Below, piece after piece: positions 967 through 22,181 of a stretch of 64,000 nt of DNA. Origin of the DNA: Cirrosporium novae-zelandiae (Eukaryota); NCBI GenBank assembly GCA_026023565.1, contig JAPETS010000055.1:1-64000 (forward strand), read 5' to 3'. A program made the position numbers and the translations under genes. The notes under the pieces are model-generated. The model saw only the letters and a list, made by a program, of their open reading frames with translations, was not told where the DNA came from and ran no database searches. Each line of letters begins with the position of its first letter. Within the stretch, counting starts at the first letter, position 1.

Positions 967-1194
967 TCAATCCACCTTGCAGAAAGCGCACAGCTCATGG
1001 CCGCAGGAGACGCATGGGCCAGATCCTACGCGGTTCGGCCCGTTGTTGCAGCAGCAGCAGGTCCACAGCTTGGGGCGCGGACGGCCCCCACGGGGTCGTG
1101 TCATCGGTGTTTCGTCCATTGTGGTACACATGTGTGGGGGACTATCGGGGAAGGAGAGGGAGAGTTCGGAGAAGGGGTCTTCGGATGGTGCCAT
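967..1194 (-). CDS. small Cys-rich Zn-ribbon-like protein (75 aa)
   Basis: First ATG at 1194 (MAPSEDPF...). C-terminus WTCCCCNNGPN...CVSCGHELCAFC matches the WxCCxCxxGP...CxxCxHxxCxxC pattern of small fungal Zn-binding proteins. Confidence 0.6.
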   Translation of the reverse strand: MAPSEDPFSELSLSFPDSPPHMCTTMDETPMTRPRGGRPRPKLWTCCCCNNGPNRVGSGPCVSCGHELCAFCKVD

Positions 1195-3044
1195 CTTTGA
1201 AGCGCTGAAAAGGTTGTTGGAGCTTCTATGTTGTTGCGAAGCCACGTCAAGCTCTTAGGGGTACAGAGAGTTAGGAAGATGTGGGTTTGAATCAGATATC
1301 TTCAGAAACGTCAAGTGAAGTTGATAGTTGTAAGGACTTGTGAGTTTTGAAGTTGTGGTGATGGGGAAACTCAAATTGAAAGGATTTGCTATTTGTTATA
1401 TATGAGATCGTTTTGGCGTACTGAGGCTATGCGTGCGAATTTTTTTGCACTCTGCAAGCGGTGATCCATCATAACTGTGAGAGCAACGGCCTGAGGAAAG
1501 GTCTTTAGCCAACAGTCATAGAATTGGGATAATGATGGGGGATACTGTTAAAGACGCATAGGCTAGGCACTTCCAATTAGGTTGGAATAATGGCCCGCTT
1601 CATTCTATACGCTCAAAGAGCTCCTCTGTATAATCGAGCAGGAAAGGCTGATTAGCTGAAGGTCAATTTTAACCATTTCCCTCCTTTGACATTAGCAAAG
1701 GCATCAGTGGGAGTCTCCGCCCCGTACAGCGTCGCCGCAATGGAGGCTATTGATGATGAACGGGAGGTCCTTGCGGTATTCAATTCGAATTTCGTGAGTA
1801 TTCCTAGAACCATGCTAGTAGGTAAATCCTGAGCGAATCCTGTCTGGAGATCAATCGATCAGGGATCGTTCGTAGGGCCGATAACGCTTGAATCAAGTCA
1901 AGAATATCTGCTACCAACAGGCAGTAAAGGCAGTGCAATTTGCATTGTGTGGATCTTCTACACAAAAGGGGGGATGAAGAATTGATACTGGCAAAGCAGA
2001 TTTAGAAAGCTGAAAGATTGTAAACCACCGAAAAACTCTCATACAGAATAGAATAGAGAGTAGGTTTGCCATGGAGGGGGTAACAGTCAAGTAACAAAAA
2101 AGAAGTTGTTGAAAGGGCGCTCTAGATAGCAATAGGCCATTGCAGCTACTTGAGATCCACTAGAAGCGTTTTACTGTTCTTGAAGCGTTCGCCTTATGGC
2201 CTTGGAGGTACCGCAGGTGAGCGGCACAGTTAAGAATAACTCAGGCAGAGTAGGCGCCTATCACATGAATAGAATACAATGCGGCGCGGCTAATATCTTC
2301 TAGGATCAAGACGACCTTGTACTCAGAAAAGTACCTGAGGCCATCCAGAGAAATACAGGAATCGATAATATTCCCTGAACAAAATATTAAATGGAATGAA
2401 ATATCGTGCCTCGTGAGAATATCATATTAATTGCGGCTTAGAAATATTCCAGTGGTCATATTTTTGAAGTGTAGTGATAGAAAGCTTAAAGTCACTAGCT
2501 TCCTGGCGGCAATAGAAGATTGAAAAAGAAATGCGAGAAGAAGCAGCCCCATAGTCATGCAGATAAGATCGCTGCATGCAAGATATGACTATATTAAGGA
2601 GATTAGGAGATGGACGGGACACTCGGGTTCAGGTTTTCATTTGCTGAACGAATTTCCAGACAGCTCAGTGGTTCGCTGATTGAAAACGCCTTGCTGAGCC
2701 ATGAATTGGTAGACTCGCTTTTACCAGTGTCTAGAGCGCTAAGTTGAAGTTAGATTGGTCTGAGGGCGAGTATTTGGCGTAGATATCCCCCTCTATGGCT
2801 TTGCCGCCGGATCTTGCAAGGGTAACAACATGACACACAGGTTGATAGAACCTGTGGAGTAGAGGGGTTGCATTCAACTAGCGATATGCAAGAACCATTC
2901 ATTGGTAGTAGATATATATATGAGCTGAATTCCGTCCTTCGATAGAGCTTGGGGTAGAAATGATTGTTGTTGACATTGTTCAGTTGAAATTTCTCAGTGG
3001 TACAGCAGCCAATCACCGAACACTAAACTTCAAGTGTTTTGTGT

Positions 3045-3140
3045 GAATTGTTTGCATTGTTTGCATTGTTTGCATTGTTTGCATTGTTTGTAATTTCCTA
3101 GCCACCAATCCATCTCCCATCACTAGCCCATGAACAAACT
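3045..3140. repeat. dispersed hairpin/9-mer repeat family, copy A
   Basis: (TTGTTTGCA)x4 followed by ACTAGCCCATGAACAAAC, 16/18 identical to the motif ACTGGTCCATGAACAAAC of copy C (29.9 kb, minus strand); also similar to copy B. Confidence 0.55.
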
Positions 3141-4481
3141 ATTTAAATCGACATTTTCGTTACTATTGGATGAATATGTTCATATATTGCCTCATTTAAA
3201 CAAATATTTGCAAAACGATTTTGCCAACTCCATTTTTCTCGGCCTCAACCTATACGTTATCAAGAATGACAATGACAAGTCACTTTCAACAAAACGAATA
3301 GTTACGCATATACCTATCAGATTATGATATCCCAAAGAATACAACTCTCCAGAATAGTCATCTTTCCTGGAAGGCCTCATAACTTCATTAATTCGGTCGC
3401 CAAGTCACCCATAAGGCTGTGCAAACCAAGAACCCCTTAGCTTTTCATCAATTCGTTAGTCGTTTCCACCATGACAACAGAGACGTCCAATATGTATTCT
3501 AGCCTTCTTGTCAATGCTACCCCCTGTGTACACATGAGTTCCCCAGTCATTACCAACATCCTCTTCCTATCGAGACCAAGGTCCAACAGTCCCTCCCTTC
3601 AAATGTAGCGAAATATTCCTGCAGGCTTGTTGGTCTTCCTCATATACCCATCAACTCAACGTTTGCTTGAGGACCCCTGGCTGCTTAGGTGTGACAAAAG
3701 AACATCCCTAAAGTATAAACCTCTTCATTAACATATGACTAGGCCGTGGTTGCAGGGCTAGAGAGGTCTGTCGTTCAGGATGTCTCCGGTAGCCATAGCA
3801 CGGTCAGTATTTCCGCTATAATTGTTGAGTAATAGATGAATAAAAACAGCCTAATACTGTATTTTTCGTATAATATCCGTGCGACTCGAGCTCGGAGAAC
3901 TTTGCAAAACTATTTAAAGTAAAGCTAGTGGTCTGCCTTAAATGTATACTGAGCAAAATCCAACCTTTCAACCACAGGAACCCAGGTCCTTCACCATAAT
4001 GGCTACTAGATAGAATCTTCAAAGTATCTAGTCAAATCCACAAATATCATTTTGGACCTTGGTTATAAGGGCTTTGGTGCTACCTCCAAGGACACAGCGC
4101 ACACTTCACACGGTCTATCTTCCCTATCAGATATTGCGATAGTGTTGCTAGCCCTCATCCTATCAGCAGAAAAAATGGTCTTCGACTAAGAATAGATGAA
4201 GGCTAGGAGGGAGCGTTGGCCAGATAAGAGATGTAGGTGACTCCGAAGATATAGAAAATAACTAGGGCAGGGGGCACGCAGGAGAAGAAATAACTTTCGC
4301 AGCAATAAAATAGAGCGAAAGGAGTATGAGAGTGTAATGAGGTTGCTGTAGCTAGAACATATTTATTTCCTTTCGTATCCAAGGATTTGACAACGCAATA
4401 ATTGGAGATTGTAATTGGAGATCGTAAATAAACGACCAGAATCAGAAATCGGACGGTCGCCAGTCTGCAAGCGTTAGCCAG

Positions 4482-7199
4482 TCAAAATTCCTGTGGGTTA
4501 AAGCCTTGTTCTCGCATAGTATTGAGTTGTAAGGGGAAATATTCAAATATTTTAGGAAAGCTTCCCGGTGAGAGGCCAGAAGTTGTAGCATCGAAGAGGT
4601 CATTCCGGGTTCCGTTCATAAGTGCACTAACATCGGGAGCTGCTAGGCTGCCATAAAAGTCCTCAGATAAATCATCAACGGTAAAACTTGAATGGCCGAA
4701 AAAATCTGACCTTGGATTTGCTGGTGTCATCAAAGTAGGTGTTGGTTGAAGGCTAATAGATTCAGCCGTGTTAAGGGGTTGGCTTTGAAGTATTGCTTGA
4801 CCTTTACCCACATTCCCAGGGCCAGATTTCAAGTGATAATCACTGATATCAGTTGATGAGAGGCTCTGATGAGGGGAGGGAGCTGTGGTGGCTGTCGTTT
4901 GAGACTCGGGGGAGATGAGTGCAGGTAGACTCGTAGGTGAGCTTATAGAGCAGGACCTGCCTAGCTTTGAAGTTATTTGACGATCAAAGGAGCCTGACGC
5001 TGATAGTAAAGCAGACGGCGGTGGAAGACTTGGTCGCTTATTGACATCTGACAATACGTCTACAGCTAGCCGAGCGGGGGCTGAAATACTCCCCCCTCTT
5101 CTTTTAATGGTGATAGTTTCAACTTTGTCGCCAGGATCCCGGCCACCCTGAAATTCTTGTACTGATTGATCTTCCTCCTTGATAGAAGGAGGGCTCTTGA
5201 TTCCGTTTGCAAATGCATCGTATCTGATACTCCCGAATTCAGTAAACAAATCTTCATATTTGGTCCATTCTTCCAGCCCTCCTCCTTCTCCTCTCCAGAC
5301 ATCAGGTGCATTTTTGAGAACATCGTTGTACACATTGTTTAACGTCCTTATCGTCCGTAGCCAACCCGTAGCCATGCACAGCCGGGACTGCATGTCGATG
5401 AGTAGAGTCATGGCTCGCTGTGTCTGTTTCCTACCTCGGTTGCTGAAAGCAATAGTGTTTGCAGAGCTCTCTTCTGATTCTGAGCACATGTATCGATTTG
5501 GGTCCATCCATGGAAACTTTATGGCATATATGCCCACAAACGCGACCGTGTATATGGCAAACCCCATCATGGGCGTTTCGGTGAGAACACGTTCTTGATG
5601 ACAGACTCGAACCAGATCTATAATGTCCCGTGCGGCTTTAAATAGAGAACTTCCACTCTCTTCCCAGAAATTATGCGGGATTTTGTATTGGTTGGGAGGA
5701 AATGTTGGCTGATCCAGGGGACCCATTGGACTTTTACAGCGGACAGCACTAAATGGAACATATTCACGATGTAAGATTATTAAACAAAGGAAATAGACGG
5801 TATGGATAAATGTATACGAAGCAGCCGAGGCCGAATTATGCGCTATTTGGGCACGAATATTTAAAAGGGTAAAGGCGAACTTCTGAGGAAGATCGGCTTG
5901 AAATTGTTTCAAGTCTTCCATAAATTGAGCGAATTGTGACTGCATGTCCCATGGAGGGAATCTCTCGGTTCTATAGCATGTTAAATCTGCATCCATTGTG
6001 ACGTATCATAAGCCATACCTCCTGCCACCATTGCATGACCATTGAGCAACTTTAGACCAAAGTGCAACAATCTTGATGACCAGACTAAGCACTCCTTCTT
6101 CGTGGCCAATCTCCAGCCTTGGTAAATTGCTACCTCTGATCGGTTGGAGCTCACAGTCTGAAGGTTCGCTTTTGTGAAGTGGAAGTCTGCATGTTTTCAC
6201 CGGCTGGCCAATGGCGAATGCAGAATCACTGCAAGGCAGTTGAACTTTGATATCTTCGATGCGAATCATCTGTTTTCTATTTTTCCCGTTGCTTGTGTAT
6301 CGATCCATGATGAAGCAACTCCAAAATGTTCGCCGTAGAATTTCTTTCTCGACAATATTGTTCACTTTGGGCACATGATAATCCTGGCACATGTGAGATG
6401 AGTTTTGGTAGGGAGCCGATTGACAACCTTCTGGATCCCGCGATTTTATAGAAGTAGTTGCATCCCCATCTATTTCTTCCAATTCCATATTCTGTGCCAT
6501 ACGAATGGCATATCCAACCAGACCCCACGCTTCTCTTCCTCTACACATGCCCCATTCATAAAGACTGAGCATGAGAAAGGCCTGAACGCGGTCCAATGAT
6601 GGTGTTGCAAGTTCCGACCCATTAACGCCATTTATCCGTGCCCGTAAAGCGTCAGCATAGTATTGAGAAGCTTTGAGGGGGGTGGAGAGCCCCGGAGGCG
6701 AAAAGTAAGCAACCAAGCTTGGGTGGAAGCGTGCACATAATGTAAGAATACCCAGAAGGATTAACGGCGATGTTTGCTTTGGTGAAGATCTTTTACGATC
6801 AGCATGCGCGTCTTCGCGACCTTCGACCGTGTCGCGGAGGTCGGCTCGAAACGTTGGCGGATGAAGAAAAGAGAGTTCTGTAGAAAAGTGAAGCTGGAAA
6901 TATTCCCATAGTTCCATCCACACTTTAAGTGTAAGTACATCATTGACCAAGAGTGACGACCTGATCCGAATAGGCGTTGCTGTATTTCTCCACGGGCGTT
7001 GCTTCTTTGCAACAGGTCCGTCTCCGTCGTAATCTCCATCCTTACTTTCATCTCTATTTCTTTTTGTGCTTGTGGTTGGCAATATATATTCGCACTCTCG
7101 ATTAGCAGCATGGCACGCCCTGCAAATTGTTTCGACGCCGCCGTTAACGCATTTCACTTTGCTCTTTCTACACCTGGCGCATGCAATGCTCGAACGCAT
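4482..7199 (-). CDS. Zn(II)2Cys6 transcription factor with fungal-specific TF domain
   Basis: MRSSIACARCRKSKVKC...CRACHAANREC binuclear cluster and RRTFWSCFIMDRY middle-homology motif. GT-AG intron 5971-6018 joins the two ORFs in frame (GGRR/TERFPPW). The start could lie slightly upstream. Confidence 0.92.
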
Positions 7200-8403
7200 T
7201 TTCCCTCGGATTCGACGGACATTCGTATGCAAGTATGATGGATTTTATGATACTTGCATCGCGACAGGAAGCGCAGTTGTTTGCGCGGCGACGTGAATTT
7301 CCAGAGTCAAGATGGAATGGAAAGGCTTTTGAGAGGCTATAGGTGATGCTGCTAGTATCCGATAACTCGGATGTGAATAGATAGGCCATAAGAATCAGAC
7401 GGGAGAAAATGGCGTCTAGCCTGTCGTGTGTTTGGTGTGCTTCGTTGTCGCAATCGATAGGGTAGCTAGACACGGCAGAGGACATGGTATCTGGCACAAG
7501 GGGGGGGACGGGGAATATCTTCCATATGAAGACCGAGAATGCAGCCAGGTTTTCTGATTTCTTATTTTGCAAGGTATCGAAGCAACTACGAAAACAATCA
7601 CTTCAATCCAGTTCAACAATTCGAGCACAAATTCCGACCCTTGGATGTTGCGCATTCATGTCATGTTCTGTGTACTTGGCACTTTGTAGAAAAGGGCCGT
7701 CTAAGAAAAAGAAAAAAAAAAGGATCACGCGAGTACTAAAGTATTGCAATAGACATTGGATTGACAACTCCAGCACCTCTCGTTTCCGGTAGACACTTTT
7801 GTTGGGGTCTGGATATCCGCATTTCCCCCTGTCAAATGGTGGAGCTCTGATTCCTCAGTCTTATATGATGGATACAAGATCGAGGCTATGTTGATTCAAA
7901 TTAGTATCTTGTCGAAACACTCGCGGTCTGTAGCCACTAATTCCGTGTAACCTCATGCAAATAAGCTGGAGAGACTTTCTAGGATGTGATATACAAGCTA
8001 TCGATATGAGATCCGAGTAATATACTTTCGCACAAAGTTTGTCGTATTGCTTATACTTTATTGATTGTAGAGTGGTGTGTACATGTCATGGCTATTCTAT
8101 AGCTGCATCAAATGGTTCAATTCTATAACTATCCCATGTTACACGTCATGATATTTCATTTGCTGGTTCCAAATATACTTCCAGCTTGCCAATTTTAGAT
8201 GTCCCGCCTATTTCTTTTGGATGATCTCATACCCGATAAACGACCGTGATGCCCAGAGATGGGTCTCATAAATTTTCCACGTCAATAAACATTATATGCA
8301 AGAAGATGCTCGATATTCAACAGGTGAGCTAATTAGTGGTGATGCAAAAAATCGTTGGCCTTTTTCCAAGGACCTATACGCATCCCTAATGTCGTGATCC
8401 GGA

Positions 8404-9269
8404 CTAGCTGCAGTTGACAAGCTGTAGAACCTCGATCGTGACAGGAGAGCATTGCGCAGCCCAGTTGCGATCGTACAAATTGTAGAAGTTCCCACTCAGG
8501 CATTGGTAGAAGACGTTAGATCCTCCAAGGGCCAAGCTACCGTTGGAGCAGACAGAGAAACCAGCAGTATAGATAGATCCAGCTTGTGGGGGATCGTCAA
8601 ATTGGAACTGATAGTTGGAAGCGATGTAACCAGTACGACCCTTAGCGTCTTTGAGGACAGTTCCGGAGAGTGTAAGCTCGAGCGTCGAATTGGTCTTGCA
8701 AGCAACCGTAACGGTCCCAGAACTGGATGAGACAGCACTACTCGTGGCTGGAGTGGTATCTTTCGCTTCGAGCTTAAATGTTGGACTGGAGACTGGAGTG
8801 GTAGCTGAGGCCTGTACTTGGCTATCACTAGCTTGTGTGGTAGCTGCCAATTCATTGTGCAATCCTGCCTGGACCTGGCCTGTTCAAAATTATTATTATC
8901 AAGTGTCTCTGGAGAGCTTCATGAATGCTTACCATCGATGATCTGGGATACACGAGCTATCGGAAGGGCTGTTGGCGTCGAGGAAACACTCTGTGTGATA
9001 AATTGCCCACTATTTACCTCCTCAGTAGCTGTATATATCACTAGAATCGAGCAAACTTACTCGGATAGATCTCTAGCTTGACGCTTCGCAGCGGCGGATG
9101 TAGCTATAGCCTGGACTGCGATTCCAAAAGTCCCTGAGTAAGAAGCAGAACACCCTGATGGAGCAGATGCAGTCGGGGCAATGTCTGAGGTAACACCCTG
9201 AGGTATAGGGGCTGGAATCGCCTGTACGGTGGCTGCTACTGCAGCGAAAACGGCGAGAGCGTACTGCAT
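8404..9269 (-). CDS. PIR/CIS3-like covalently linked cell-wall mannoprotein
   Basis: Signal peptide, KR (Kex2-like) site, DGQ repeats, and C-terminal GRTGYIASNYQFQFD...CLSGNFYNLY 4-Cys domain. Introns 9010-9060 and 8880-8932. Confidence 0.9.
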
Positions 9270-10683
9270 ATTGGGAAATATTTGATTGCAGATAGTTGTA
9301 GTGGTAAAATAGGAAGGCTTATGGCTATTTACAGCAAAGTAGCCGATTCAAACAAGAAATGTGTGATAGAGCGAAAGAGTACAATCACAAATATTTCAGT
9401 GATGGGCACGGTAGACGGTGTATAAAAAGAAGGGTGGATGTGCACACAAACAGATAGTACACAACTTAGGAGATATGAAGAAGAAATTGCAGGCTGAGGG
9501 AGCAGAAGTCAATAAGTACCCTGGTGGGGTTGTTTTCGTATTGGATGATAAACAAGATGATTTGAAGAAAAGCAGTAAATCATGACGGAAGGGGTTTCAC
9601 CTGGCCATGTTTGGATGTCCACCCAGCCATAGAATGGGATTGAAAGGGTTGTAGTTGTTTGTCTAGATTCTAGGGCGTCTCGTCTTTGGACGAGTTGAAT
9701 CCGTTACATTTGTTCGTTTTACGCGTCGAGTTACCGCTAGCCAACAAGGAGTGGAAGAATGGGAATTGGCATAGGAAGACACCGCCCCGCGTTTGAAGTT
9801 CCGCCACACCCGCTGAAGCTTATTATGCTTGTCCTTGTCCAGAAACCTGCCACCTGCCCACACTTCACCTGCCACACAAAAGTCCCTGCCACAGAAAAAA
9901 CAAACAGAAAAACATCTCCAGCTGACAAGAATAAAGGATATCCATACATCAGCATGTTGCCAATATAACAGGTTTAATTCCCAACCCCCACTGGAAATCC
10001 TTGTCCCACCCACATGAATAATTTATTCATCCTTACTTTCCCCTCTTTTCCTCTATTCTCCTCTTCAACGTCATTTGCAGACCACTTTGGTCAAGCAATT
10101 CAACTTCTCCTGAGCCCCAAACCCTGCCAATTAAATATTTCCTAGCCGACCATTGATCTGTCACCAGTCGTCCATTCCTCGCCACAATTGAAACGAAGAA
10201 TCCTCTTGGCACTGGTTCTCTCTCCAATCGAAAATCCCAGCCCTAAAAGGAATTTTTTTGTCATAGAAAATCTAATACGCCAGGGGCTGGATGATCCGCT
10301 ATGCCTGGCATGCTTTCAACATCTCCACATTTTAGTATTAAACTCAACTCCTAAGAGGCCAAAGACTCTCATCCCTTCATTTGACGAGTTCCACTCGCCG
10401 TCACCATTCACCAACATCATGACCATGTCCTTCCGGTCCAACTGGGCTTAACAAAGAAGTAGCAAAGTATGTTTTTTGTTCGAAACAGCTACTAATGTTT
10501 CCTCGATACTTCACTTGTTAAAATTACCATGCATCATCAACTTCTCGCTGGAGACGGTGAAAATCCCGTAACAAAGTACGGTGATCCGAAACTTTACTGG
10601 TCCACGTTGTAAGAATAACAAAGTGTAGGTTCACATACCCCTGCAGCTGTTGTTGCATTGTTCCAAAGTAAATCTAAATTGGT

Positions 10684-12147
10684 TTATATCTTCGACTTTA
10701 TATCCTTCATATCTTGAGGCATTCCTACCCTCCAACTGATATCTACATCCCCATCATCTTTGACATCTTTCCATTTCCACCGTTTCTTGGACTGCTCTCC
10801 GCCTTCGATGAGCTCTTTTACCCATTTACCCAAAACGGGCAACATTTTATAACCATGGCCTGAATCACCACTGATAACTGCCAGCCCCTCTTTACCAGGC
10901 ACAAAGTCAATGATATACTCAGAGTCCCGCGTATCTGCGCACCAGCAGAGCGTTTTGTTAATAAGTGGTCTATCCGCTAGCTTGGGGAGCGTCTCCCTGA
11001 GCAAGCGACGGATCAATTGCTCATCTTCTGTGGGAATAAAAGCGTACTGCTGGGTTGTTGTTGGCGGGACCGAAAGCCTTGACCCCGATTGATAGTTTGT
11101 AATACCGGCATTTGCAGAACACAGCTTGAGAAGATGTGTTTTGGGATCTGGCTCAAAAAAGAACCCAATATCACGTGCATAGGTGACAGGAATTCCCATA
11201 AGAGGAGCCGCTTCTTCAGGAGTGAGGGCAACATGAGCGACAGGCCAGGCTTTACCAGTGACCTGGACGTGAATGGATGGAATCAGGGAAGCAGCTGATG
11301 CCCCGAGACAGATTATCGTAAGTGGGGATTTATATTGTTTACCTGAAGCTGTCGATGCACCGATGCATTTGTTGCCAGAATAAAGTATTTCTGTCACTCC
11401 ATCGTCCAAGTGAAAAGTAACGCCAAGCGCAATGCAAGCCGAGTACACCGCACGCATTGCATCAGCAGCATGGGCATATCCCGCACGTTTGTTGAAGTAT
11501 CCTGTCCAGGCCATTGGGCCATCAAACACTGGTACCAGGGAAGAAATCGTATCCCGTTTGTTAATAGGAATAATTTGGTCTGCGAATGCAGGATGCGATG
11601 AAATGGAGGATAGAGAGCGCTGCAAGGTGGCTTTGCTTTTAGCAGGAGCCGTAGCGGATGTGGCCAGCAAATATCCATTCTGATGATAATAAGGAGCAAA
11701 AAGTGGCGACTGCCATTCCTTGATTGCGTCCTAGATACAGTCAGGAACGGTGTACGTGTACATGCTGAATGACAAAGGTCAACATTGCGGAGAACTGTTC
11801 AGATCAACATGACCACACTAAATGACTAGGAAGCTGCCTGATGAACCCAAACTAGATGTTGGAGCTTCCATATGCATCACTAACGCAGTTGACAATTTAA
11901 AGGATAGCTAACATGCTCGAGGGATACTGACTAAAGCGAGTTCAGCGTAGAACGGGTCCTCATATTCAGCCCTGATAATTTTATTTAAATCATTTCCAGC
12001 AGAAAATTCCGAAGGAACACTGGATCCTTTTTCGAGGACTGTAATATTTTTATAGCCAGACTTGGATAGATGGTATGCGGTAGAGAGGCCGAAGGTGCCG
12101 GCACCCAGGATAAGAACAGACGTATTGATATCAGACTTGAGAGTCAT
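10684..12147 (-). CDS. FAD-dependent amine oxidase, MSOX/fructosyl-amino-acid/pipecolate/saccharopine oxidase family
   Basis: ILGAGTFG Rossmann motif, SAGNDLNKIIR, CWCADT (covalent-FAD Cys motif), GDSGHGYK, C-terminal -SKI (PTS1-like). Intron 11731-11931. Confidence 0.92.
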
Positions 12148-12555
12148 GGTGGCTTGGGAGCGAAAGATCTTGCTTGGACCAATGCTGAAGAGAGAGCCTG
12201 AACACCCATATTTAAAAGGCGCAGTCAAACAGCCCAGTTTACGGATTTGCACGAATTCTGGGGATACCTCAATGGATTGTCGATGGTTTTGATTTCTCAA
12301 ATTTTGGAGGAAGGTGGAGGCGAGCTAATGGCTTCATATGAGCGGCAAATTACCCCGGGTTTCTTATCTGTTATCAGTCCCAAAGCTTCATCCCAAATAC
12401 TTGATCGATAGCTACCTACTTCCTTGGTGAAAAGTAAATGCTTTTCATGATGATCTCCTATCATCTCTTCATTATCATGCCATTTTCCTTTGATACCCAT
12501 CTTTCATAGGCAGGCAGGTGTTTGTTGGTTTTCATGGTTAGCTACTCCACTCAAT

Positions 12556-14711
12556 ATGTCAGCAAAATGCCAGTCGCGAGTTGGTGATCGTCGGTGTCGA
12601 AGTGGCTGTTGGAAATGTAAAGGTAAATCGGTGAACCTGTCGTGCTTCTCCGTCAACGCAAATCATCTAAGCTGTTTATCTCCAGAACGTCACGTCAAAT
12701 GCAGCGGTACTATGCTAAAAGCTCCGACCTGTCCCTCCGTTTACTGATTCGAACTTGCAAGAGGAACGACCGAATTGCAGACATTGCACTAGACTTGGGC
12801 TCGACTGCCGTTATGATATTAGACTTATATGGAAGGAAAACACAAACTCGGAGGGGACTATATTTGAACACTCAGGTAATTGAGGATATATTGGGGAGGG
12901 CACCTGCTTCTATATCATATGCTCATATTGCCTGCTTAGGAGTTCGGTCGAGGCAGCACGGTCGACAGTGGCAAAAATGTCAAAATCCGCGACGAATGGC
13001 TACGTCTCGTAGTGAGGTTTTCAATGGAGAAACTATTTTCGAAGCCTTTGTCGAGGATTGGATGTTCCTAAATACAACATGGCGAGATTTCACGAATCAA
13101 AACGGAGAATATATAGTAGAAGAGGACGAGGAGTTCCACAAAGCGCAAGATTGCGAAACCATACCTACGGTTTTGTCGCCAAGCCCTAGTTTGTCGTCAG
13201 TGACATCGTTGACTAGCTGGCCTCAAGATGAGCTGAGTGGTTTAAAATATGACGATTTAGACAGTGGTTCGGATACTTCAATACTCTCTGGCAGCTCGTC
13301 TAGACTCAGAATTCCTCGTCCTGTTTCGCCCTTTGGTTTATCTTCCACTGAACAATACCTTTTCGACTATTTCTTGTATGTTATTAGTCCACAGTGCTTT
13401 TTAGTCGGCTCGCGAAATCCATACTCCAGTGTCCTCACCCCGATTGCACTGTCATCCCCATCACAGCCTTTAATGCAAACCATCTTAGCTGTGGCTGCCA
13501 ACCAATTGCGGATAACAAATGATCATCGTTTTGACAATGACCTCTGGATTTATCGCGCGAAAGCTTTGAGTGGGTTGAGACAAGAGCTTGAGCACTGCAA
13601 GTATCAGCATAAATTGAAGTGTGGTTGGGAGCAGAGTCTTGCAACTGTAGTTATGTTGTGCTTTTTTGAGGTTAGTAATTTTGTTTTCTTTGATAAAGTT
13701 ATCATCGAATATTTCGAATACCATAAAACGAGTCATCCTATTTAGGGTTGGTATTGTTGTTTCTTGGAGAGTCTGAAGAGATTTCTGTCCGTCGAGCCAT
13801 CATGCTTCTGTTGGCCGTTTTTGCAATGTAAGCTGACGAATTTATTTGTAAAGGTATCTGCAGACTGTTCAGCGGCGTGGGTAACACATCTCTCTTGTGG
13901 ACGCCGGCTACTGTCTCTTCTCCGATCTTGCGAAACCTTTTCCGCTCAGCAAGAAGAGCTTTATAAATTCGCGATAAGGTATCTAGCATCCCACGATGCA
14001 TTGGCAGGGACAGCTTGGGAGTCGGAAGATTCATTCGAGGAAGAACAATGGTTTTTCCATGATCCCACCCACCAAGAAATAATCGACCCTCTCTTTGGCT
14101 CCTCCCGAGAACTACTCGAACTAATCGCAACAATCTCAAACCTAGCAGGAGATCAAGCGAGAGCAACCGAGATTCGCAGATGGGACCCTGCAACTGCGGC
14201 CAGACTTCTAGATCGCACCCAAACTCGACGTGACAGGGTTGAGAGACGCCTCCACCTCATTGAGCAACATGCTCAGTTACCAACCGATGCAGAAAAATCA
14301 AACTCGATCTCACTCGCCGAAGAACTGACCCGCATCGCCGAGGTAAAACGCCTAACAACACTCCTATATCTCTACACATCCCTAGACCAGTCCCTACCAC
14401 ACCATCCCCATATGATACGCCTCACATCAAAAATCCTAACCATGATACCACGAATCTCTCTGAGGACAAACACGCTTCTCTGGCCCTTGTTTGTTGTGGG
14501 AACAATGGGGGTCCAGCCAGACCGAGATGAAGACCGCAAGCTGATCCTCGAGAGGCTGAATGCCCTGCAAAAGACGCGGCAACTTGGGAACGTAAAGAAA
14601 GCTAGATGCGTAGTGGAGGGCGTTTGGAAGGAACGGGATCTGAGGAGGACGGAGGATACGCGATGGCGGGATATTATTGCTGGAAGGGGCGGGCTGCTGA
14701 GTCTTGCTTGA
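12556..14711 (+). CDS. Zn(II)2Cys6 transcription factor with fungal TF C-terminal domain
   Basis: Spliced zinc cluster CWKCK/ERHVKCS/EERPNCRHCTRLGLDC spread over three short exons (not visible in the ORF track), LLWPLFVVG motif near the C-terminus, 4 introns. Confidence 0.88.
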
Positions 14712-14919
14712 GTTTTTTTCAGGAGGATGGAGGGAGAGGGAGGGGTTTTACTATTTAGGGCTCATGAATGGATGAGGCGTAAGAATTGGGGGCATTTGTG
14801 TTACTATTTACAACGTATGGATTTATTTATAAATATATGTGGACGATTTATATTTCTATATATTTGACATTCGTTTCAAAACCAACAACCAATCCTTCTC
14901 ACATACTCGCCTCAATACT

Positions 14920-16473
14920 CTACGTAGTATACCTAAACCCCTTCTGCTCCCAGTCGGTCTCATCCTGAAACCCCTTTACCATGCCCTCCAAACTCTCATC
15001 ATTAACCTCCTCCGCCCGTCCCCATTTCTGGTCCTTGCGTTTATTCTGCACTGCCGTGACAGCCCAATACGCCATCACCAATAAGATACTACCACAATAG
15101 CACGTCAGCATCGCGATAACGCCCCCGGTATACGCAGGCGCCTGGTCGGAGCGGAATGTCTGTGGCCCGATAAGATTTCCGGCGGCGTAGCCTAGGAATA
15201 GCAGACTGAAAGAGGTGGTTTTCTTGGTGTAGCCGGCCGTGTTTGCCTGGGGCAATGATACGCATACGACGTAGGGGCCCCAGTAGCAGTACATGAGATA
15301 GAGGCCAACCATCTGGCCAGGAGTGTTTGAACGGGGTAGACCATAGACGAGCGCGGTGCCCAGGAGGGGCAGGAGGGCAGAAATGGCGATGCAGAGGCAG
15401 CGGCGATTTTTCCATCTTGATGCGAGATAGGCGAAGGTGCAGCCGGAGATGGTGGACATGACTCCCGTTGGCATGGAGAGCAGGGAGGAGGTGCGGGCGT
15501 CGAAGCCGAGGTTGTTGATGATGATGGAGCCGAAGGTGATGAGGCCGCCGTTGGGGATGTTGATGGCGATGTTGAAGAGGAAGACCAGCCAGGTTTTCGG
15601 GTCCAGGATGGATTCCAGCACCTGGCTCCACTTCCACGTTTTGTTTACGATCCCTGTGCGGTTGGAGGCCAGGCGCTGCACCGCGTGGTATTTTTCTTCG
15701 CGGGTTAGGAACCAGGCGTTCATGGGGGAGTCCGGGAGGGCGATGAAGACGAAGATGGAGTAGCAGACGTTGATGGAACCCGTGATGAGGAATAGGTATT
15801 GCCATTTTGCGAGTGGGGCTGAGTCGGGGATTTGGCCAACCACCCAGGACCAGAAGCCGTTGATGACGGAGCTAAAGCAGGAGAGGATTATGGCGTTGAT
15901 GGGGGGTTGCTCGTGAATTTTGTAGAAACCCGCAATGATGAGTTGGATCGCCGGGGAGATGACGGCTTCGAACATTCCCATCAGGAAGCGGAGGACCATG
16001 AAGCCGCCCCATGACTTGCAGGCCGCGTAGAAGAGGGTTAGGATGGACCAGCATATGGAGCAGAAGCAGAGGTATTTTGCTGTGGGTAGTCGGTGGACTA
16101 GGTAAGAAGAAATGAACATTCCTGGGAGCATGCCTAGCGGGAGGATGGATCCTAGCCAGCTGTATTGCTGGCCGTGCAGGTTGTTGTCGGTACGGAAGCC
16201 GTAGATTGCGGCGGTGCCGAGTTCGACCTTGTCCACTGCGCCTAGGGTTGCGACAAAGAGGAGCATGGGGATCATCCAGCGGTCGATTTTGCGCTTCAGT
16301 TTTTTCTCTTGCTCTGGCGTCAGAGGGGCATAGGTCTCGTCGGTATCTGCTAGGAATTGCGCAGCTTGGTCGACGACATGGTTGTCAAATTCCTTGCTGA
16401 TTATTCCTGATTCGATGTTGGTTACTTCTTGAGGCTGGACCTTGTCCTCGTGTTTAGTATCAGAGGAAGCCAT
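14920..16473 (-). CDS. MFS permease, allantoate/DAL5 (ACS) family
   Basis: Intronless 517 aa; KLKRKIDRWMIP, YSWLGS, LPDSP..AWFL, NTAGYTKK and GNLIGPQTF motifs; about 12 hydrophobic segments. Confidence 0.93.
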   Translation of the reverse strand: MASSDTKHEDKVQPQEVTNIESGIISKEFDNHVVDQAAQFLADTDETYAPLTPEQEKKLKRKIDRWMIPMLLFVATLGAVDKVELGTAAIYGFRTDNNLHGQQYSWLGSILPLGMLPGMFISSYLVHRLPTAKYLCFCSICWSILTLFYAACKSWGGFMVLRFLMGMFEAVISPAIQLIIAGFYKIHEQPPINAIILSCFSSVINGFWSWVVGQIPDSAPLAKWQYLFLITGSINVCYSIFVFIALPDSPMNAWFLTREEKYHAVQRLASNRTGIVNKTWKWSQVLESILDPKTWLVFLFNIAINIPNGGLITFGSIIINNLGFDARTSSLLSMPTGVMSTISGCTFAYLASRWKNRRCLCIAISALLPLLGTALVYGLPRSNTPGQMVGLYLMYCYWGPYVVCVSLPQANTAGYTKKTTSFSLLFLGYAAGNLIGPQTFRSDQAPAYTGGVIAMLTCYCGSILLVMAYWAVTAVQNKRKDQKWGRAEEVNDESLEGMVKGFQDETDWEQKGFRYTT

Positions 16474-17613
16474 GGCGATTGAGAGCAAGACGGAAAATCA
16501 ATCAATCAATGAATCAGTAGTCAAGTAGGAAACACAAACACAGACGAGATAGAGGTTGACAGGCCCTTGATCGGGACGATCAAGAAGCTTTTATAGAGGA
16601 AATTTGATCCAAGTAGACATTATCAGTGTTATCATCGAAGAGAGATACATGGTCAATAGAAGATGGTCTTTGCATGCTGCTAAATGAAGTCAATGGCTTA
16701 TCTTCCAGCATTTTGTGCACCACGATAAATGACAGCATTGAGTATTGGGGAAAATATCATGGATGCTTGTTTGAGTTGAGTTCGTCCAAGTTGCGGAGGT
16801 CAGGGAGGAGAGCCGGCTAAACCAAGGGAGTGGGCCGGGGAGTGGGCCGGGGAGTAGGCCGGGGAGTAGGCCGGTGAGAGACCCTCGGGTTTCTACCAAC
16901 TTTACTAATACATACGATACACCACATACTCCAAGGAAGGTAGAGACGACGAACAAAAGATAATCTAGTTATCTAGTTATCCAGTTATTCAGTTATCGAC
17001 CATGAATCCATGGCGGGAACCTTGTTTTATTACCCTATTTAGATAAAGTTGTTTATCGTGAGTTGGGGGCACTAATCTAAGTGGCCTACTCGACGACACC
17101 AAGTGTGGGTCAAGATACTGACAAACAGTGACTTCGGTTCTGACAACCCTTTTACCTGACATTATCATGGATCTGCAGCGTAAGAGGATAAATCCACCAT
17201 TTCATTGGACCCAGATACTGCCTCGATAATTATTTGCCAATGATCCCTTGAACGAGCATACTCAAGTACAGAGTACCCCGTCCCTAAACCAACCCGAATT
17301 CTTTAGCATCCACTATGGATATCTCCGTTCCAACATCTCCAATCTTTCGCGTGCGACTTCCACGAACCTGAAGCGTATCACGAGGAGATAACAATGCAAG
17401 CGGGGGAAAAACAATCTCTTGGTGGGGTTGAAGAGAACTGGAGGAGCTTACATTGGGTCACACTTCATCCCAATTGCGGGCTTGGTGCTGTTGGATTAGA
17501 AAGACTATTTATTACTCTTCCGAATAAATATTTGTTAAAGAATTCCTGAGATCCTCTGAGCCTTTAATCTATACTCTAGAATTTTCTGCTTTTTCTTCTT
17601 GAAGACGTTCAAA
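16474..17613. promoter_or_regulatory. divergent promoter of permease and oxoprolinase, rich in GATA (AreA/NIT2-type) sites
   Basis: About 13 HGATAR matches counted by eye on both strands, including the tandem AGTTATCT/AGTTATCC/AGTTATTC/AGTTATCG at 16967-16998. Confidence 0.6.
16826..16873. repeat. 12-bp tandem repeat (GGGAGTRGGCCG)x4
   Basis: Read directly; generates CCGG every 12 bp plus several GGG tracts. Confidence 0.9.
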
Positions 17614-20600
17614 ATGGGGATTAACGTACCTTTAGAACCGAAAAGTATCAAGTTTGCGATAGGTGAGTGTAGATTCAAATCTTTGTCAATATGATACTAG
17701 ACGCTGACGATACAATTGAAGATCGGGGTGGGACATTTACAGATGTATGCGATTAAAACCAAATCCTGTGAGGGAGAGTGATAAATACTTATGGCCTAAT
17801 AGGTATGGGCCAGTATTCCGGGGCAGCCAGATATTGTTACGAAGCTTTTGTCGGTCGATCCAGAGAACTATAGCGATGCGCCATCAGAGGGTATGTTTGA
17901 CAAACTCGCTTTTAGTGGATTGCAGTCTCTAAATTGTTTCGATATTAGGGATAAGACGAATTCTCGAGAGGGTGACTGGTTCTACAATTCCACGCAAAAG
18001 TCCATTACCGAAGGAATATATTCATTCAATACGCATGGGAACGACTGTGGCAACCAATGGTAAGGCAATCTTCAATAACGGTTGATGGGAAAAAACAAAT
18101 CCTAACATAGTCTACTATGCAGCTTTATTAGAACGGAAGGGGACCCGTCATGCCATGTTCGTTACAGAAGGCTGGAAAGACTTTCTGGAGATTGGTAACC
18201 AGTCACGGCCAAAGCTCTTCGAATTAGGCATCAAGAAACCGGAACTTTTATATGATGAAATAATCGAAATATCGGAACGTGTTACAATAGAAGAATTCGA
18301 TGAAGATCCTGAAAAGGACAAACGACCGCCCAAGAAGGAAATTCCGGGTGTTTTAGTCAAAGGTCTCACCGGAGAACTTGTCCGCATTTTAAAACCACTG
18401 AGTGATGAGGAAGTCAAAGAGAAACTTCTTAGACTCCGAGAAAATGGGTTTGATGCTTTGGCTGTCTGCTTTGCCCACTCATATTTATTTCCAGAACACG
18501 AGGAACGGGTTGCTCAGATTGCCTCTGATCTCGGGTTCTGTCACATTTCTCTTTCTTACAACGTGGGTTCCAATATGATTAAGATGGTGCCAAGAGGAAG
18601 CTCTGCTTCCGCAGATGCATATCTGACTCCAGAGATAAGGCGTTATGTCGATGGTTTTGCAAAGGGCTTTGAAGGGGAAAGTCTGGATGGTATTACCTGT
18701 GAATTTATGCAAAGTGATGGAGGATTGGTAAATTATAAGGGATTCAGTGGGCTGAAAGGGATTTTGAGTGGTCCAGCTGGTACGTTTCACATTCCAAGTC
18801 AGTCAAGATATCGTCTCGGAATGTAAAGAATTGGCTTGGACTGACGTTCCATGAACTTTGCTGTCTATCCTTCTAAACAGTAGCTAACAGACTTTATTTT
18901 TTATAGGCGGCGTCGTTGGCTACGCAAGAACATCTTACGATGGAGAGACGCCTGTTGTCGGTTTTGATATGGTAAGCTTTTTATTACAAGATTACCAGTA
19001 ACTTCTTAGCTAACAGTTGTTCTTTCAGGGGGGAACCTCGACAGATGTCAGTAGATTTGGCGGCGCTTTTGAACATGTCTTCGAAACTGTCACTGCAGGC
19101 GTCACTATCCAAAGCCCGCAACTAGATATTAATACTGTTGCCGCTGGGGGTGGTAGCATTTTGTTTTGGACAAATGGTCTTTTTAAGGTCGGGCCAGAGG
19201 TTAGTACTCTTGATTCTTTTACTTAGTTATTACATATACCAACAATCGTCAAGAGCGCCGGCGCACATCCCGGCCCAGCAGCATACAGGAAAGGAGGCCC
19301 TCTCACGGTTACAGATGCCAACCTGTTCTTGGGTCGTCTAATCCCAAGCTATTTTCCCGCTATCTTTGGTCCAAATGAAGACCAACCATTAGATTCAGCG
19401 ATTGTGGCAGAGAAATTTACATCATTGACCGCGCAAATCAATGCTGAGACTGGACGGAACATGACACCAGCTGAAGTTGCAAATGGCTTCATCGATGTTG
19501 CTAATGAATCAATGTGCCGACCTATTCGTGCACTGACAGAAGCCAGGGGTTATGAGACTGCAGCGCATAACCTTGGTGTTTTTGGTGGTGCTGGGTGAGT
19601 TTGTCCCATTCTATATTTTTTTCCGCTTTCTAATTGCTTGCAGTGGCCAACATGCCTGTGAAATTGCGGATAAATTGGGAATTTCGAGAGTAATTCTACA
19701 TAAATTCTCTAGCATCCTTTCTGCTTATGGAATGGCTCTTGCAGAGGTCGTCCAAGAAGCCCAAGAACCAAGCAGCGAAGAATTGTCTCCTGAAACATTC
19801 TCTCATCTACAACAAAGAATGGAATTTCTCAAGACCAAGGTAACCGAAAGCCTACTGGCTCAGGGCGTGGAAATGAAATCAATTGGCTACGAACCGTATT
19901 TGAATCTTAGGTATCAAGGAACGGATACTCAATTTATGATAATGGAGCCTGAAGATGGAAACTATAGAGCTGCTTTCGAGAAGGACCATCTGAGAGAACT
20001 ATCTTTCATATTCCCTCCTGAAAGAAAAGTTCTCGTTGATGATATTCGGATGAGAGCTGTTGGTAAAAGTGAGCAGGTGAACCATGACAACGAAAAGTTG
20101 ACCAAAGAAATGAAAACAACAAATTTCTTCACCGTCAGCGAGAAAGAAGCTGCACATTCGGTAAGATATTTATTTATTATTCACTCCTTTATACTAATTC
20201 TCTACAGCCAAAAGCGTACTTTTCTCCATTAGGCTTGCAGGCAACTCCCATCTTCCTTCTCGATAAGCTTGCCCCTGGAAGTACCATCCCTGGCCCTGCT
20301 ATCATCATCGACAATACTCAAACTATCGTAGTTACGCCAAATTCTCAAGCTCGGATCCTGACATCCCACGTTATAATTGACATATCCGACGAAAAGCCCA
20401 AGGCGGCCATGGAAGACCAGCTCAAGACCGTTGACCCAATCAAGCTTTCTATTTTCGGACATAGGTTTATGTCTATTGCTGAGCAGATGGGGCGAACTCT
20501 ACAAAAGACAAGTTTATCTCTTAACATTAAAGAGCGTCTCGACTTTTCCTGTGCAATATTCAGTCCTGACGGTGAGCTCGTCGCCAACGCCCCTCACGTT

Positions 20601-22181
20601 CCTGTTCATCTAGGTAGTATGAGTTACGCCGTGCGCTATCAGCGTGAACTCCACCAAGGCAAACTACGACCTGGTGATGTTCTTGTCTCTAATCATCCCG
20701 AAGCTGGTGGTACACATTTACCTGATATCACTGTCATCACCCCTGTTTTCGAAAAAGACGACAAGACTATTTGCTTCTTCACAGCGTCACGAGGCCATCA
20801 CATGGATATTGGAGGTTTGGACGGGACATCCATGCCTCCCAACTCCACTGAGCTATGGCAAGAAGGTGCGGCGATCAAGTCATTTTTCCTTGTGCGAGAC
20901 GGGAAGTTTTATGAAGAAGAAATCTGCAAAATCCTCACAGAACCTGGAGAGCGTCCAGGTTGCACACCATCCCGACGACTCGGCGATAACATTAGCGATC
21001 TGAAAGCACAAATTGCCGCCAACAGCAAAGGCTCAAGTCTCATCCATGCACTAATGGACGAATACAGTAAGCCGGTGGTTCACTTTTACATGGCCAAAAT
21101 CCAAGAAAACGCCGAAGTTGCTGTCCGAAATTATCTGAAATCCACCCTTGAAAAATTTGGCCCAGTTGCTCTGGAAGCAGAAGACTATCTCGACAACGGC
21201 TCGAAGCTCAAAGTTACGATTACCATCAAGGAAGACGGGAGCGCAACCTTTGACTTTGCTGGTACATCATGCGAAATGTTGTCAAACATGAACGCCCCCC
21301 CAGCAATAACGTACTCCGCCCTCATATATACCCTCCGACTTTTAATTGGTAGTGACATTCCCCTCAACCAAGGCTGCCTTGCTCCTGCAACAATCCTCCT
21401 CCCCAAAGGCACATTCCTTAACCCGTCTTCTGGCCCAGCCGTGTGCTGCGGCAACACCCTAACCTCCCAGCGCCTCGTTGACCTTATCCTCAAAGCATTC
21501 CGCGCAGCTGCCGGCTCTCAAGGTTGCATGAATTGCTTCGGTCTATTCGGACGAAGCGGGTTTGATGCAGATGGAAAGCCTCTCCCAGGATTTGGATACA
21601 ACTATGGCGAAACAATCTGCGGAGGGGAAGGCGCTGGCCCAACATGGAACGGGGCTAGCGGAGTACATGTCCACATGACCAATACCCGCACTACCGATGT
21701 CGAACTCCTCGAAAAGCGTCTCCCTATCATCCTTCGCGAATTTTCGATCCGTCGTGGGAGTGGCGGACGTGGGCTTTACAATGGAGGCGATGGTGTCATT
21801 CGCGACTGGGAATGCCGGGTCCCATTGACATTCTCGATGATCTCTGAGCGTAGGGTTCATAGGCCATATGGCATGTACGGGGGCGAGGACGGCGAGTGTG
21901 GAGCCAATTACTGGATCCAGAAGACAGAAGATGGATGGAGGTGGATGAGTATGGGGCCCAGAGGTCAGGTCGACATGGGAGCCGGTGATAGATGTGTTAT
22001 CCATACACCTGGAGGAGGAGGATGGGGCAGCGTGGCTAACGGAGTGAATGGGCATGCTAATGGAGTCAACGGGCATGTCAATGGAAACGGACATATCCAC
22101 GAGGTGAAGGAGAAGCCGTTTTACCCGAGAGCAAATGGGAGTTTAGATGCGTATGCCACTGCCCAGACAGAGTCCAGTTAG
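17614..22181 (+). CDS. OXP1: ATP-dependent 5-oxoprolinase / hydantoinase A+B fusion
   Basis: [65 protein letters not shown] and TPGGGG motifs; 9 introns splice in frame. May be a paralogue of the housekeeping OXP1. Confidence 0.93.

Follow-up and report, generated by a model that had tools for sequence, protein, structure and literature searches.

A conserved four-gene cluster of Cirrosporium novae-zelandiae, probably for catabolism of a lactam-carboxylate

The window analyzed here is a 64,000-nucleotide stretch of the fungus Cirrosporium novae-zelandiae, class Xylobotryomycetes (assembly GCA_026023565.1, contig JAPETS010000055.1, positions 1 to 64,000 of the forward strand). Positions 10684-22181 hold exactly four genes, encoding an FAOD-like oxidase dependent on flavin adenine dinucleotide (FAD), a Zn2Cys6 regulator, an ACS/DAL5 permease of the MFS, and a large enzyme of the 5-oxoprolinase family in which HyuA and HyuB are fused. 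Genes were found from stop-to-stop open reading frames (ORFs) and Pfam matches, with splice sites read by hand; the introns are supported by splice consensus and by orthologues. The features are as follows.

10684..12147, minus strand: FAOD-like oxidase, a predicted covalent-flavin amine oxidase of 420 amino acids (aa); exons 11932-12147 and 10684-11730, intron 11731-11931, Pfam DAO in both exons
12148..12555, unstranded: divergent promoter region between oxidase and regulator, 408 bp, from the gene models
12556..14711, plus strand: Zn2Cys6 regulator, 596 aa; exons 12556-12622, 12686-12706, 12762-12875, 12940-13670 and 13854-14711
14920..16473, minus strand: ACS/DAL5-family MFS permease, one exon, 517 aa; Pfam MFS_1, TIGR00893
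16474..17613, unstranded: bidirectional promoter between permease and oxoprolinase, 1140 bp, from the gene models
16824..16873, plus strand: tandem 12-bp CGG-N8-CCG array with the unit CGGGGAGTRGGCCG, three exact copies and one degenerate
17614..22181, plus strand: fused HyuA-HyuB gene of the 5-oxoprolinase family, a putative ATP-dependent lactamase, ten exons, 1331 aa; from Pfam domains
17614-17662, 17722-17744, 17803-17890, 17949-18059 and 18123-18779, plus strand: exons 1-5 of the ten
18907-18971, 19029-19199, 19254-19594, 19644-20160 and 20208-22181, plus strand: exons 6-10 of the ten

The oxidase and regulator genes form one divergent pair and the permease and oxoprolinase genes another, with 408 bp and 1140 bp between the partners, and the regulator and permease genes converge across a gap of 208 bp. 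No further gene was found between the four in the ORF and Pfam reading of 10684-22181. The boundaries are exact: on the minus strand, the stop codon of the oxidase has its last base at 10684, and that of the oxoprolinase, on the plus strand, finishes at 22181. The oxidase model is 100% identical to the database protein P0121 (M1834_007835, from a metagenome-assembled genome of C. novae-zelandiae). The spliced model of the large gene is free of stops, and the database protein P0001 is 100% identical to it over the last exon. The locus tags of the two genes, M1834_007835 for the oxidase and M1834_007838 for the large enzyme, leave room for exactly two genes in between. The public NCBI model of the oxoprolinase (P0001, 1325 aa) begins at an ATG within what orthologues indicate to be intron 1 (region 17614-17744) and misses the conserved start, ...PKSIKFAID; our first exon fits because the N-termini of orthologues start likewise.

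The same four families recur together elsewhere. Metagenome contigs were scanned with an alignment of 29 oxidase relatives, yielding 79 loci, and were then searched with the four spliced proteins of the window. On three independent 21-kb contigs, L036, L060 and L064, all four families are present, in two gene orders that both differ from that of the window.

L036: oxoprolinase 3051-7009 (minus strand), permease 7924-9548 (plus), oxidase 10001-11374 (plus), regulator 13552-14994 (plus)
L060: regulator 725-2497 (minus strand), oxoprolinase 2811-7108 (minus), permease 8042-9483 (plus), oxidase 10001-11648 (plus)
L064: gene order as in L060

A shorter contig (L017, 4.7 kb) carries permease, regulator and oxidase in the order of the window, and on four short contigs (L062, L063, L068 and L077) the permease adjoins the oxidase. 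Relatives of the regulator were detected by tblastn within the cluster on L017, L036, L060 and L064. In tblastx comparisons, the sequence outside 10684-22181 has nothing in common with these loci, and only the four genes are common to L036, L060, L064 and the window. The cluster is thus self-contained, its order reshuffled and its content kept. The initial annotation of this DNA had described it as such, with both pairs divergent and no unrelated gene between them; gene models and tblastx agree with that description.

Of the 79 oxidase loci, 8 are linked, 27 are unlinked although their upstream flank measures 5 kb or more, and 44 are of insufficient length to judge. A FastTree tree of the oxidase was built from 132 rows: the 27 unlinked loci, 5 linked ones and 100 database proteins with a length of 390 aa or more. 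It left out the 44 undecidable loci, three linked loci of which fewer than 300 aa were recovered, and 20 proteins below that length. The unlinked loci fall into two clades, 23 in one and 4 in the other, and the unlinked label changes only 4 times on the tree, compared with a mean of 24.9 when labels are shuffled (0 of 500 shuffles as low). Because they are confined to two clades, the unlinked oxidases are paralogues and not exceptions to the linkage.

Linkage was also analyzed in named fungi, using the best 120 matches from each of three protein searches (oxoprolinase, oxidase and permease). Equal size of the longest contig served as a proxy for a shared contig, which undercounts, as each list stops at its best 120 matches and cluster representatives may come from other assemblies. 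Among the 120 best oxoprolinase matches, at least 22 share a contig with an oxidase, at least 39 with a permease and at least 12 with both; by the same proxy, at least 17 contigs are common to the oxidase and permease match lists. Among species pairs in which both genes carry tags of a single series, the locus tags of oxoprolinase and permease are at most two apart in 10 of 11. The difference is one in Meristemomyces, Saitoella, Apiospora rasikravindrae, Paraconiothyrium, Exophiala spinifera, Venustampulla, Penicillium angulare, Colletotrichum noveboracense and Diaporthe australafricana and two in Fusarium lateritium, and the tags are distant in Talaromyces atroroseus. Oxoprolinase and oxidase tags are at most three apart in all four pairs available: three in C. 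novae-zelandiae, Thyridium curvatum (E0L32_005920/005923) and Daldinia eschscholtzii, and two in Meristemomyces. Biscogniauxia marginata has all three genes on a single 14.6-kb contig. A counter-case is Fusarium decemcellulare, where the oxidase (FDECE_7912) and the permease (FDECE_9344) are not neighbors.

The linked taxa span from Saitoella (Taphrinomycotina) to diverse Pezizomycotina, including Xylobotryomycetes. The co-location of the four orthologues across fungi, which the initial annotation had proposed to look for, is thus clearly seen, both on L036, L060 and L064 and in the contigs and tags of named fungi. It confirms that transporter, enzymes and regulator lie together across species, the arrangement by which a catabolic cluster is recognized. 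New relative to that annotation is the reach of the permease-oxoprolinase pair: this core extends furthest, far beyond the complete set of four genes. In the literature searched, which did not cover subscription journals or bioRxiv supplements, we found no description of the cluster as such, and no mention of AN8779 and its neighbors.

The large enzyme carries Hydant_A_N, Hydantoinase_A, Hydant_A_C and Hydantoinase_B (8e-200) in this order in one chain of 1331 aa, and the same Pfam set is present in all of the best 120 oxoprolinase matches. The motifs DRGGTFTD and GFDMGGTSTD are readable in the model. In a search with the last exon, the protein shares 55-62% identity with its nearest 50%-cluster representatives. 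The solved N-methylhydantoinase 7hk5 is far more distant (E 1.2e-102 over about 1270 residues), and caprolactamase ranks with the best matches in NCBIfam, where it stays below cut-off, and in the PDB. Because the nearest representatives are this close, and N-methylhydantoinase and caprolactamase much farther away, the enzyme belongs, broadly defined, to the eukaryotic 5-oxoprolinase family. The sequence does not reveal what it acts on. The HyuA/HyuB-related family also opens lactams other than 5-oxoproline, for example in caprolactamase, as described in the accessible parts of two reports (PMC6061476, PMC8453981). The enzyme lacks a type 1 peroxisomal targeting signal (PTS1), and no PTS1-like ending occurs among the tallied C-terminal tripeptides of 120 oxoprolinase homologues.

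In a FastTree tree with 20 full-length representatives, picked from the 150 best 50%-cluster representatives, all 120 named oxoprolinase matches form one clade with a support of 100, and the 20 chosen representatives fall outside. The clade has two deep subclades. The window's enzyme is in the first, together with those of Xylariales, Colletotrichum, Diaporthales and Meristemomyces, and the second contains Saitoella, Aspergillus, Penicillium, Exophiala and Pleosporales as well as the oxoprolinases of L036, L060 and L064. Full clusters are present in each. Some Xylariales have a second, unflagged oxoprolinase paralogue (8 rows on a long stem). The oxidases of Saitoella, L036 and L060-L064 also form a clade of their own; it parallels the oxoprolinase subclade, and the two enzymes therefore seem to have been passed on jointly in each of the two lineages.

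The oxidase has the two-domain FAD oxidase fold of the sarcosine oxidase superfamily with an N-terminal GxGxxG motif, as indicated by Pfam DAO, AlphaFold2 and Foldseek. By sequence, Amadoriase II is the solved protein closest to it (3djd, E 1.1e-50). A Foldseek search with the AlphaFold2 model (pLDDT 93) gave 3dje_A as the top match, with a TM score of 0.88 and 34% identity. Amadoriase II, Amadoriase I and fructosyl peptide oxidases are its nearest neighbors of solved structure, in sequence as well as in fold (30-35% identity, TM 0.85-0.90), and monomeric sarcosine oxidases come next by fold (TM about 0.75). In source annotations the homologues are named 'sarcosine oxidase/L-pipecolate oxidase' or 'L-saccharopine oxidase'. 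The chain ends in SKI, a PTS1-like tripeptide already pointed out in the initial annotation, and the ending [SAP][KR]L is found in 59 of 99 full-length homologues. Peroxisomal targeting is therefore a conserved trait of the oxidase, which is predicted from this signal to be peroxisomal.

The flavin-linked cysteine and the two si-face lysines are kept, and the fructosyl-binding glutamate is not. According to the accessible text of a published account (PMC5459902), FAD is bound covalently through Cys335 of Amadoriase II, two lysines, Lys57 and Lys274 of PnFPOX, lie on the si-face, and the fructosyl moiety is contacted by Trp235, Glu278 and Gly372 of PnFPOX and by Arg411/418 of the amadoriases. 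Among the 132 aligned rows, the covalent-FAD cysteine (Cys334 here) is kept in 131, Lys274 in all 132 and Lys56 in 130. In HMMER alignments to 3djd and 6a6t, an alanine stands opposite the fructosyl-binding glutamate (Glu278 of PnFPOX, Glu280 of Amadoriase II), and at this Lys+4 site glutamate occurs in 0 of 132 rows, with A, S or H among the cluster-linked relatives. For the other contacts (Trp235, Gly372 and Arg411/415/418), the window's protein has W234, G363 and R406, the arginine lying in a flexible loop and being aligned by sequence only; among 32 rows of linked relatives, the tryptophan is replaced in 12 and the glycine in 12. As this glutamate, one defining feature of the group, is missing, we do not file the oxidase as a fructosyl amine oxidase and regard a fructosyl substrate as disfavored. 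We propose that it is a non-fructosyl member of the amadoriase/saccharopine-oxidase lineage.

In two further clades of FAOD-like relatives (L001-L005, L008-L013 and other loci of the scan), the fructosyl-binding glutamate is likewise absent, and the site is L/M or S. These oxidases are unlinked, never adjoining the permease or the oxoprolinase, and in one of the two clades Phe replaces the second Cys of the CWC motif.

The permease matches Pfam MFS_1 (6e-25). Its top NCBIfam match is TIGR00893 '2A0114' of the ACS family, at 2.9e-57 over positions 6-391 of the 399 in the profile, below the bacterial cut-off; the next family follows at 3.4e-09. On this best profile match we assign it to the ACS/DAL5 family of the MFS (TC 2.A.1.14). 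A crude Kyte-Doolittle scan for the twelve membrane spans of this family gave 8 segments above 1.5. Some homologues carry the name 'allantoate permease' in source annotations. ACS permeases carry anions.

The regulator contains the motif GCWKCKERHVKCSEERPNCRHCTRLGLDC, that is C-X2-C-X6-C-X6-C-X2-C-X6-C, split over three exons of the spliced model, and its two large exons match Fungal_trans_2 of Pfam (E 8e-18 and 3.5e-47). It thus combines the six-cysteine motif and the fungal-specific middle domain by which Zn2Cys6 regulators are recognized. An alternative acceptor for its last exon lies at 13746. Both divergent promoters contain the GATA-type consensus HGATAR at about three times its density across the window. 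Five occurrences fall between oxidase and regulator, a number reached by 3.2% of all 408-bp segments of this sequence. The 13 between permease and oxoprolinase are the maximum for any 1140-bp segment, and 0.64% of segments reach this number. The permease-oxoprolinase intergenic regions of L036, L060 and L064 are likewise enriched, by 2.6-4 fold. As counts of a consensus, these figures fit a control of the cluster by GATA-factor nitrogen regulation.

A search for motifs common to the two divergent promoters returned only GATA-type words and a single CGG-N9-CCG, which lies in the oxidase-regulator promoter. A search for CGG-N8-CCG units gave 4 matches, all at 16824-16873, compared with 0.30 expected, and 4 were reached in 0 of 100 shuffles. 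The array thus occurs in the permease-oxoprolinase promoter alone, with no further such site in the window, and is a candidate binding site for the cluster's own Zn2Cys6 regulator. It is only a lead, because slippage can generate tandem repeats. The minus strand of the array reads as a spurious ORF rich in Pro, Gly and Leu.

The four genes stay together across distant fungi, and therefore probably belong to one nitrogen-scavenging pathway. We suggest that they are a nitrogen-catabolic cluster conserved among ascomycetes, probably for a lactam-carboxylate. The substrate, step order and regulation that we infer form a serial pathway, which we favor tentatively: a non-fructosyl, N-substituted lactam of the 5-oxoproline type would be imported, opened with ATP and then cleaved oxidatively in peroxisomes. 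The ACS/DAL5-type permease would bring in the anionic lactam-carboxylate, and the cytosolic 5-oxoprolinase-family enzyme would open the ring at the expense of ATP to give an N-substituted glutamate. The peroxisomal covalent-FAD oxidase could then cleave the remaining C-N bond, releasing glutamate, a carbonyl compound and H2O2, and the Zn2Cys6 factor would switch the genes on, atop GATA-factor nitrogen control. The substituent is most likely alkyl or carboxyalkyl, as in saccharopine lactam or opine lactams, and not fructosyl. A precedent for the last step is saccharopine oxidase, described as a flavoenzyme of peroxisomes with a mass of 45 kDa, which frees glutamate from an N-alkyl-glutamate (PMC9854754, accessible text).

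Several points weigh against this serial pathway. By the same-contig proxy, and within the best 120 matches of each search, 27 of the 39 permease-linked oxoprolinases have no oxidase match on their contig; by itself, the pair may thus already suffice for plain 5-oxoproline. An identity of 55-62% to the representatives is in the usual range of the eukaryotic 5-oxoprolinase family, and the canonical enzyme is reported to require an unsubstituted ring nitrogen. Because the lactamase is predicted in the cytosol and the oxidase in peroxisomes, the pathway would also need a passage of the intermediate into peroxisomes. No N-substituted pyroglutamate of natural origin is known to us to be abundant where fungi live. 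Finally, both trees are from FastTree only and midpoint-rooted.

Some of these points feed the main rival, which we consider somewhat unlikely. Here one regulator would govern two parallel branches: permease and oxoprolinase would assimilate plain 5-oxoproline (pyroglutamate) as glutamate, and the peroxisomal oxidase would separately oxidize an amino acid with a secondary amine, for instance sarcosine, L-pipecolate or saccharopine. The breadth of the permease-oxoprolinase core (at least 39 of the 120 best matches, neighboring tags in 10 of 11 pairs), the closeness of the large enzyme to 5-oxoprolinase-family representatives and the sarcosine/L-pipecolate or L-saccharopine names of the oxidase homologues all speak for it. 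So do the accessible parts of three publications. The transporter of 5-oxoproline in yeast was stated to be unknown in a 2026 paper (PMC13398684), and gene lists place oxoprolinase genes near DAL5-family genes. In Cryptococcus neoformans these are CNAG_06872/06873 and CNAG_06875 (PMC7067042), and the locus numbers of Pichia sorbitophila put four OXP1 genes next to or near NTA1/DAL5 (PMC3284337), the adjacency being inferred from the numbering in both cases. However, two independent branches give no reason for an unrelated oxidase to stay linked through rearrangements in both deep subclades, in clusters that conserve nothing else. A salvage of cyclic metabolites of the lysine family, in which an L-pipecolate/saccharopine oxidase would produce aminoadipate semialdehyde and the oxoprolinase homologue would open 6-oxopipecolate (alpha-aminoadipate lactam), is improbable. 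Its two products would both enter the fungal aminoadipate pathway, and ATP-dependent relatives open six- and seven-membered lactams, caprolactamase ranking with the best matches in NCBIfam and the PDB. PMC9854754 describes pipecolate oxidase activity in fungi and a saccharopine oxidase activity of peroxisomes. Against this reading, 6-oxopipecolate, which may occur in fungi, is not found in that source (0 occurrences of 'oxopiperidine' in its accessible text), and no feature of the sequence points to a ring size.

The initial annotation had offered fructosyl-5-oxoproline as its leading example of a substrate, to be imported, opened and then deglycated by the oxidase acting as an amadoriase. This route, for that or another Amadori lactam, would suit the closest solved structures, which are amadoriases and fructosyl peptide oxidases, and the presence in the window's oxidase of the Trp, Gly and Arg with which those enzymes contact fructose. 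It is nevertheless very unlikely, given alanine in place of the fructosyl-binding glutamate, glutamate in none of the 132 aligned relatives, and an identity to amadoriases of merely 30-35%. The interpretation as a whole thus keeps its cluster, its co-location, its PTS1 and its bacterial analogy, which is in print, and loses its fructosyl example. We give as little credence to a creatinine or N-methylhydantoin route with the large enzyme as N-methylhydantoinase and the oxidase as sarcosine oxidase. The best solved relative of the large enzyme, 7hk5, is annotated as N-methylhydantoinase and sarcosine oxidases belong to the oxidase family, but that match is far weaker than the one to 5-oxoprolinase-family representatives, a carbamoylsarcosine amidase is conserved in none of the clusters, and the anion preference of ACS permeases also argues against it. 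The idea of a housekeeping OXP1 that lies beside unrelated genes by chance is hardly tenable and already contradicted: the linkage is seen again, with the genes rearranged, on independent contigs as well as in numerous named species. That the four families recur together elsewhere shows the arrangement to be more than chance.

Elsewhere in the window, a second, unrelated Zn2Cys6 regulator gene with Zn_clus and Fungal_trans domains lies at 4482-7244 on the minus strand, about 3.4 kb past the oxidase, and tblastx found no counterpart of it in the other cluster loci. An intron-split gene for a MoeA/gephyrin-type molybdopterin molybdenumtransferase (MoeA_N, MoCF_biosynth, MoeA_C) is found at 38954-40810 on the plus strand. 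An open frame of 1463 aa at 52846-57237, also on the plus strand, has a weak GEMI5 TPR match (7e-13) alone. At 60421-63429 on the minus strand, two ORFs with a zinc-type alcohol dehydrogenase domain (ADH_zinc_N) may be tandem paralogues.

Fungal 5-oxoprolinase genes are routinely annotated as housekeeping genes of the glutathione cycle, and FAOD-like oxidases as "sarcosine/pipecolate oxidase". One lineage of each enzyme has been passed on, through much of Ascomycota, in company with a regulator of its own and an anion permease. This points to an undescribed nitrogen-scavenging pathway and makes the permease a concrete candidate for the fungal transporter of 5-oxoproline-type compounds. In a broader and rather doubtful extension, ACS/DAL5 permeases and 5-oxoprolinase paralogues would be an ancient fungal system of lactam utilization, whose substrate-specific modules radiated across ascomycetes and probably basidiomycetes. 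The permease would then be the missing fungal transporter for 5-oxoproline-type compounds, and the four-gene form would be the counterpart of bacterial opine-lactam catabolism, degrading N-substituted pyroglutamates by way of a peroxisomal oxidase.

Several known systems resemble the cluster or its parts. The large enzyme shares domain order and a single chain of about 1300 aa with the eukaryotic 5-oxoprolinases, yeast OXP1 and mammalian OPLAH. Unlike these housekeeping enzymes, which are not known to be clustered, it adjoins a permease and belongs to the clade of 120 named fungal matches that leaves out the 20 chosen representatives. The caprolactamase CapAB is likewise an ATP-dependent lactamase relative, but it is distant in sequence, has two subunits and acts on neutral substrates. 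With the fungal fructosyl amine oxidases (Amadoriase I/II, FPOX) the oxidase shares the fold, the covalent-FAD cysteine and the two si-face lysines, whereas the fructosyl-binding glutamate is absent here. Saccharopine oxidase as described is also about 45 kDa and peroxisomal, a likeness drawn from its description and not from its sequence. The lamA/lamB genes of Aspergillus nidulans belong to the PxpABC-type 5-oxoprolinase family and not to HyuA/HyuB, so that the idea of an OXP1-type lamA was dropped. They are likewise a divergent fungal pair for lactam catabolism under a Zn-cluster regulator (PMC8016842, accessible text).

The same trio of enzymes and permease appears as crsA-crsC at the edge of the clonorosein polyketide synthase cluster of Clonostachys rosea, where a 5-oxoprolinase of 1330 aa, an MFS protein of 520 aa and a sarcosine/pipecolate oxidase of 415 aa lie side by side (PMC11153888). 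In the accessible text of that report, they are listed within the biosynthetic cluster without a role and are not recognized as a separate conserved unit. We suggest that the trio is probably an unrelated, conserved catabolic unit within this secondary-metabolite cluster.

The initial annotation had drawn a parallel with the degradation of agropinic acid in Agrobacterium, for which the aga genes are responsible. An arrangement of this kind is described in the accessible text of a study of Ti plasmids, in which hydantoinase/oxoprolinase A and B genes lie beside genes for opine transport and opine oxidases and are proposed, and only proposed, to act as lactamases that open lactam opines (PMC6733357). 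The two systems would have in common a transporter, an ATP-dependent opener of the HyuA/HyuB type for a pyroglutamate-type lactam and the oxidative cleavage of an N-substituted amino acid. In the Ti-plasmid system, as far as that source describes it, the A and B subunits are separate, the transporters are of the ABC type, the regulator is of the LysR type and the opine oxidases are unrelated, whereas the fungal cluster has one fused chain of eukaryotic type, an MFS permease, a Zn2Cys6 factor and an FAOD-like oxidase predicted to be peroxisomal.

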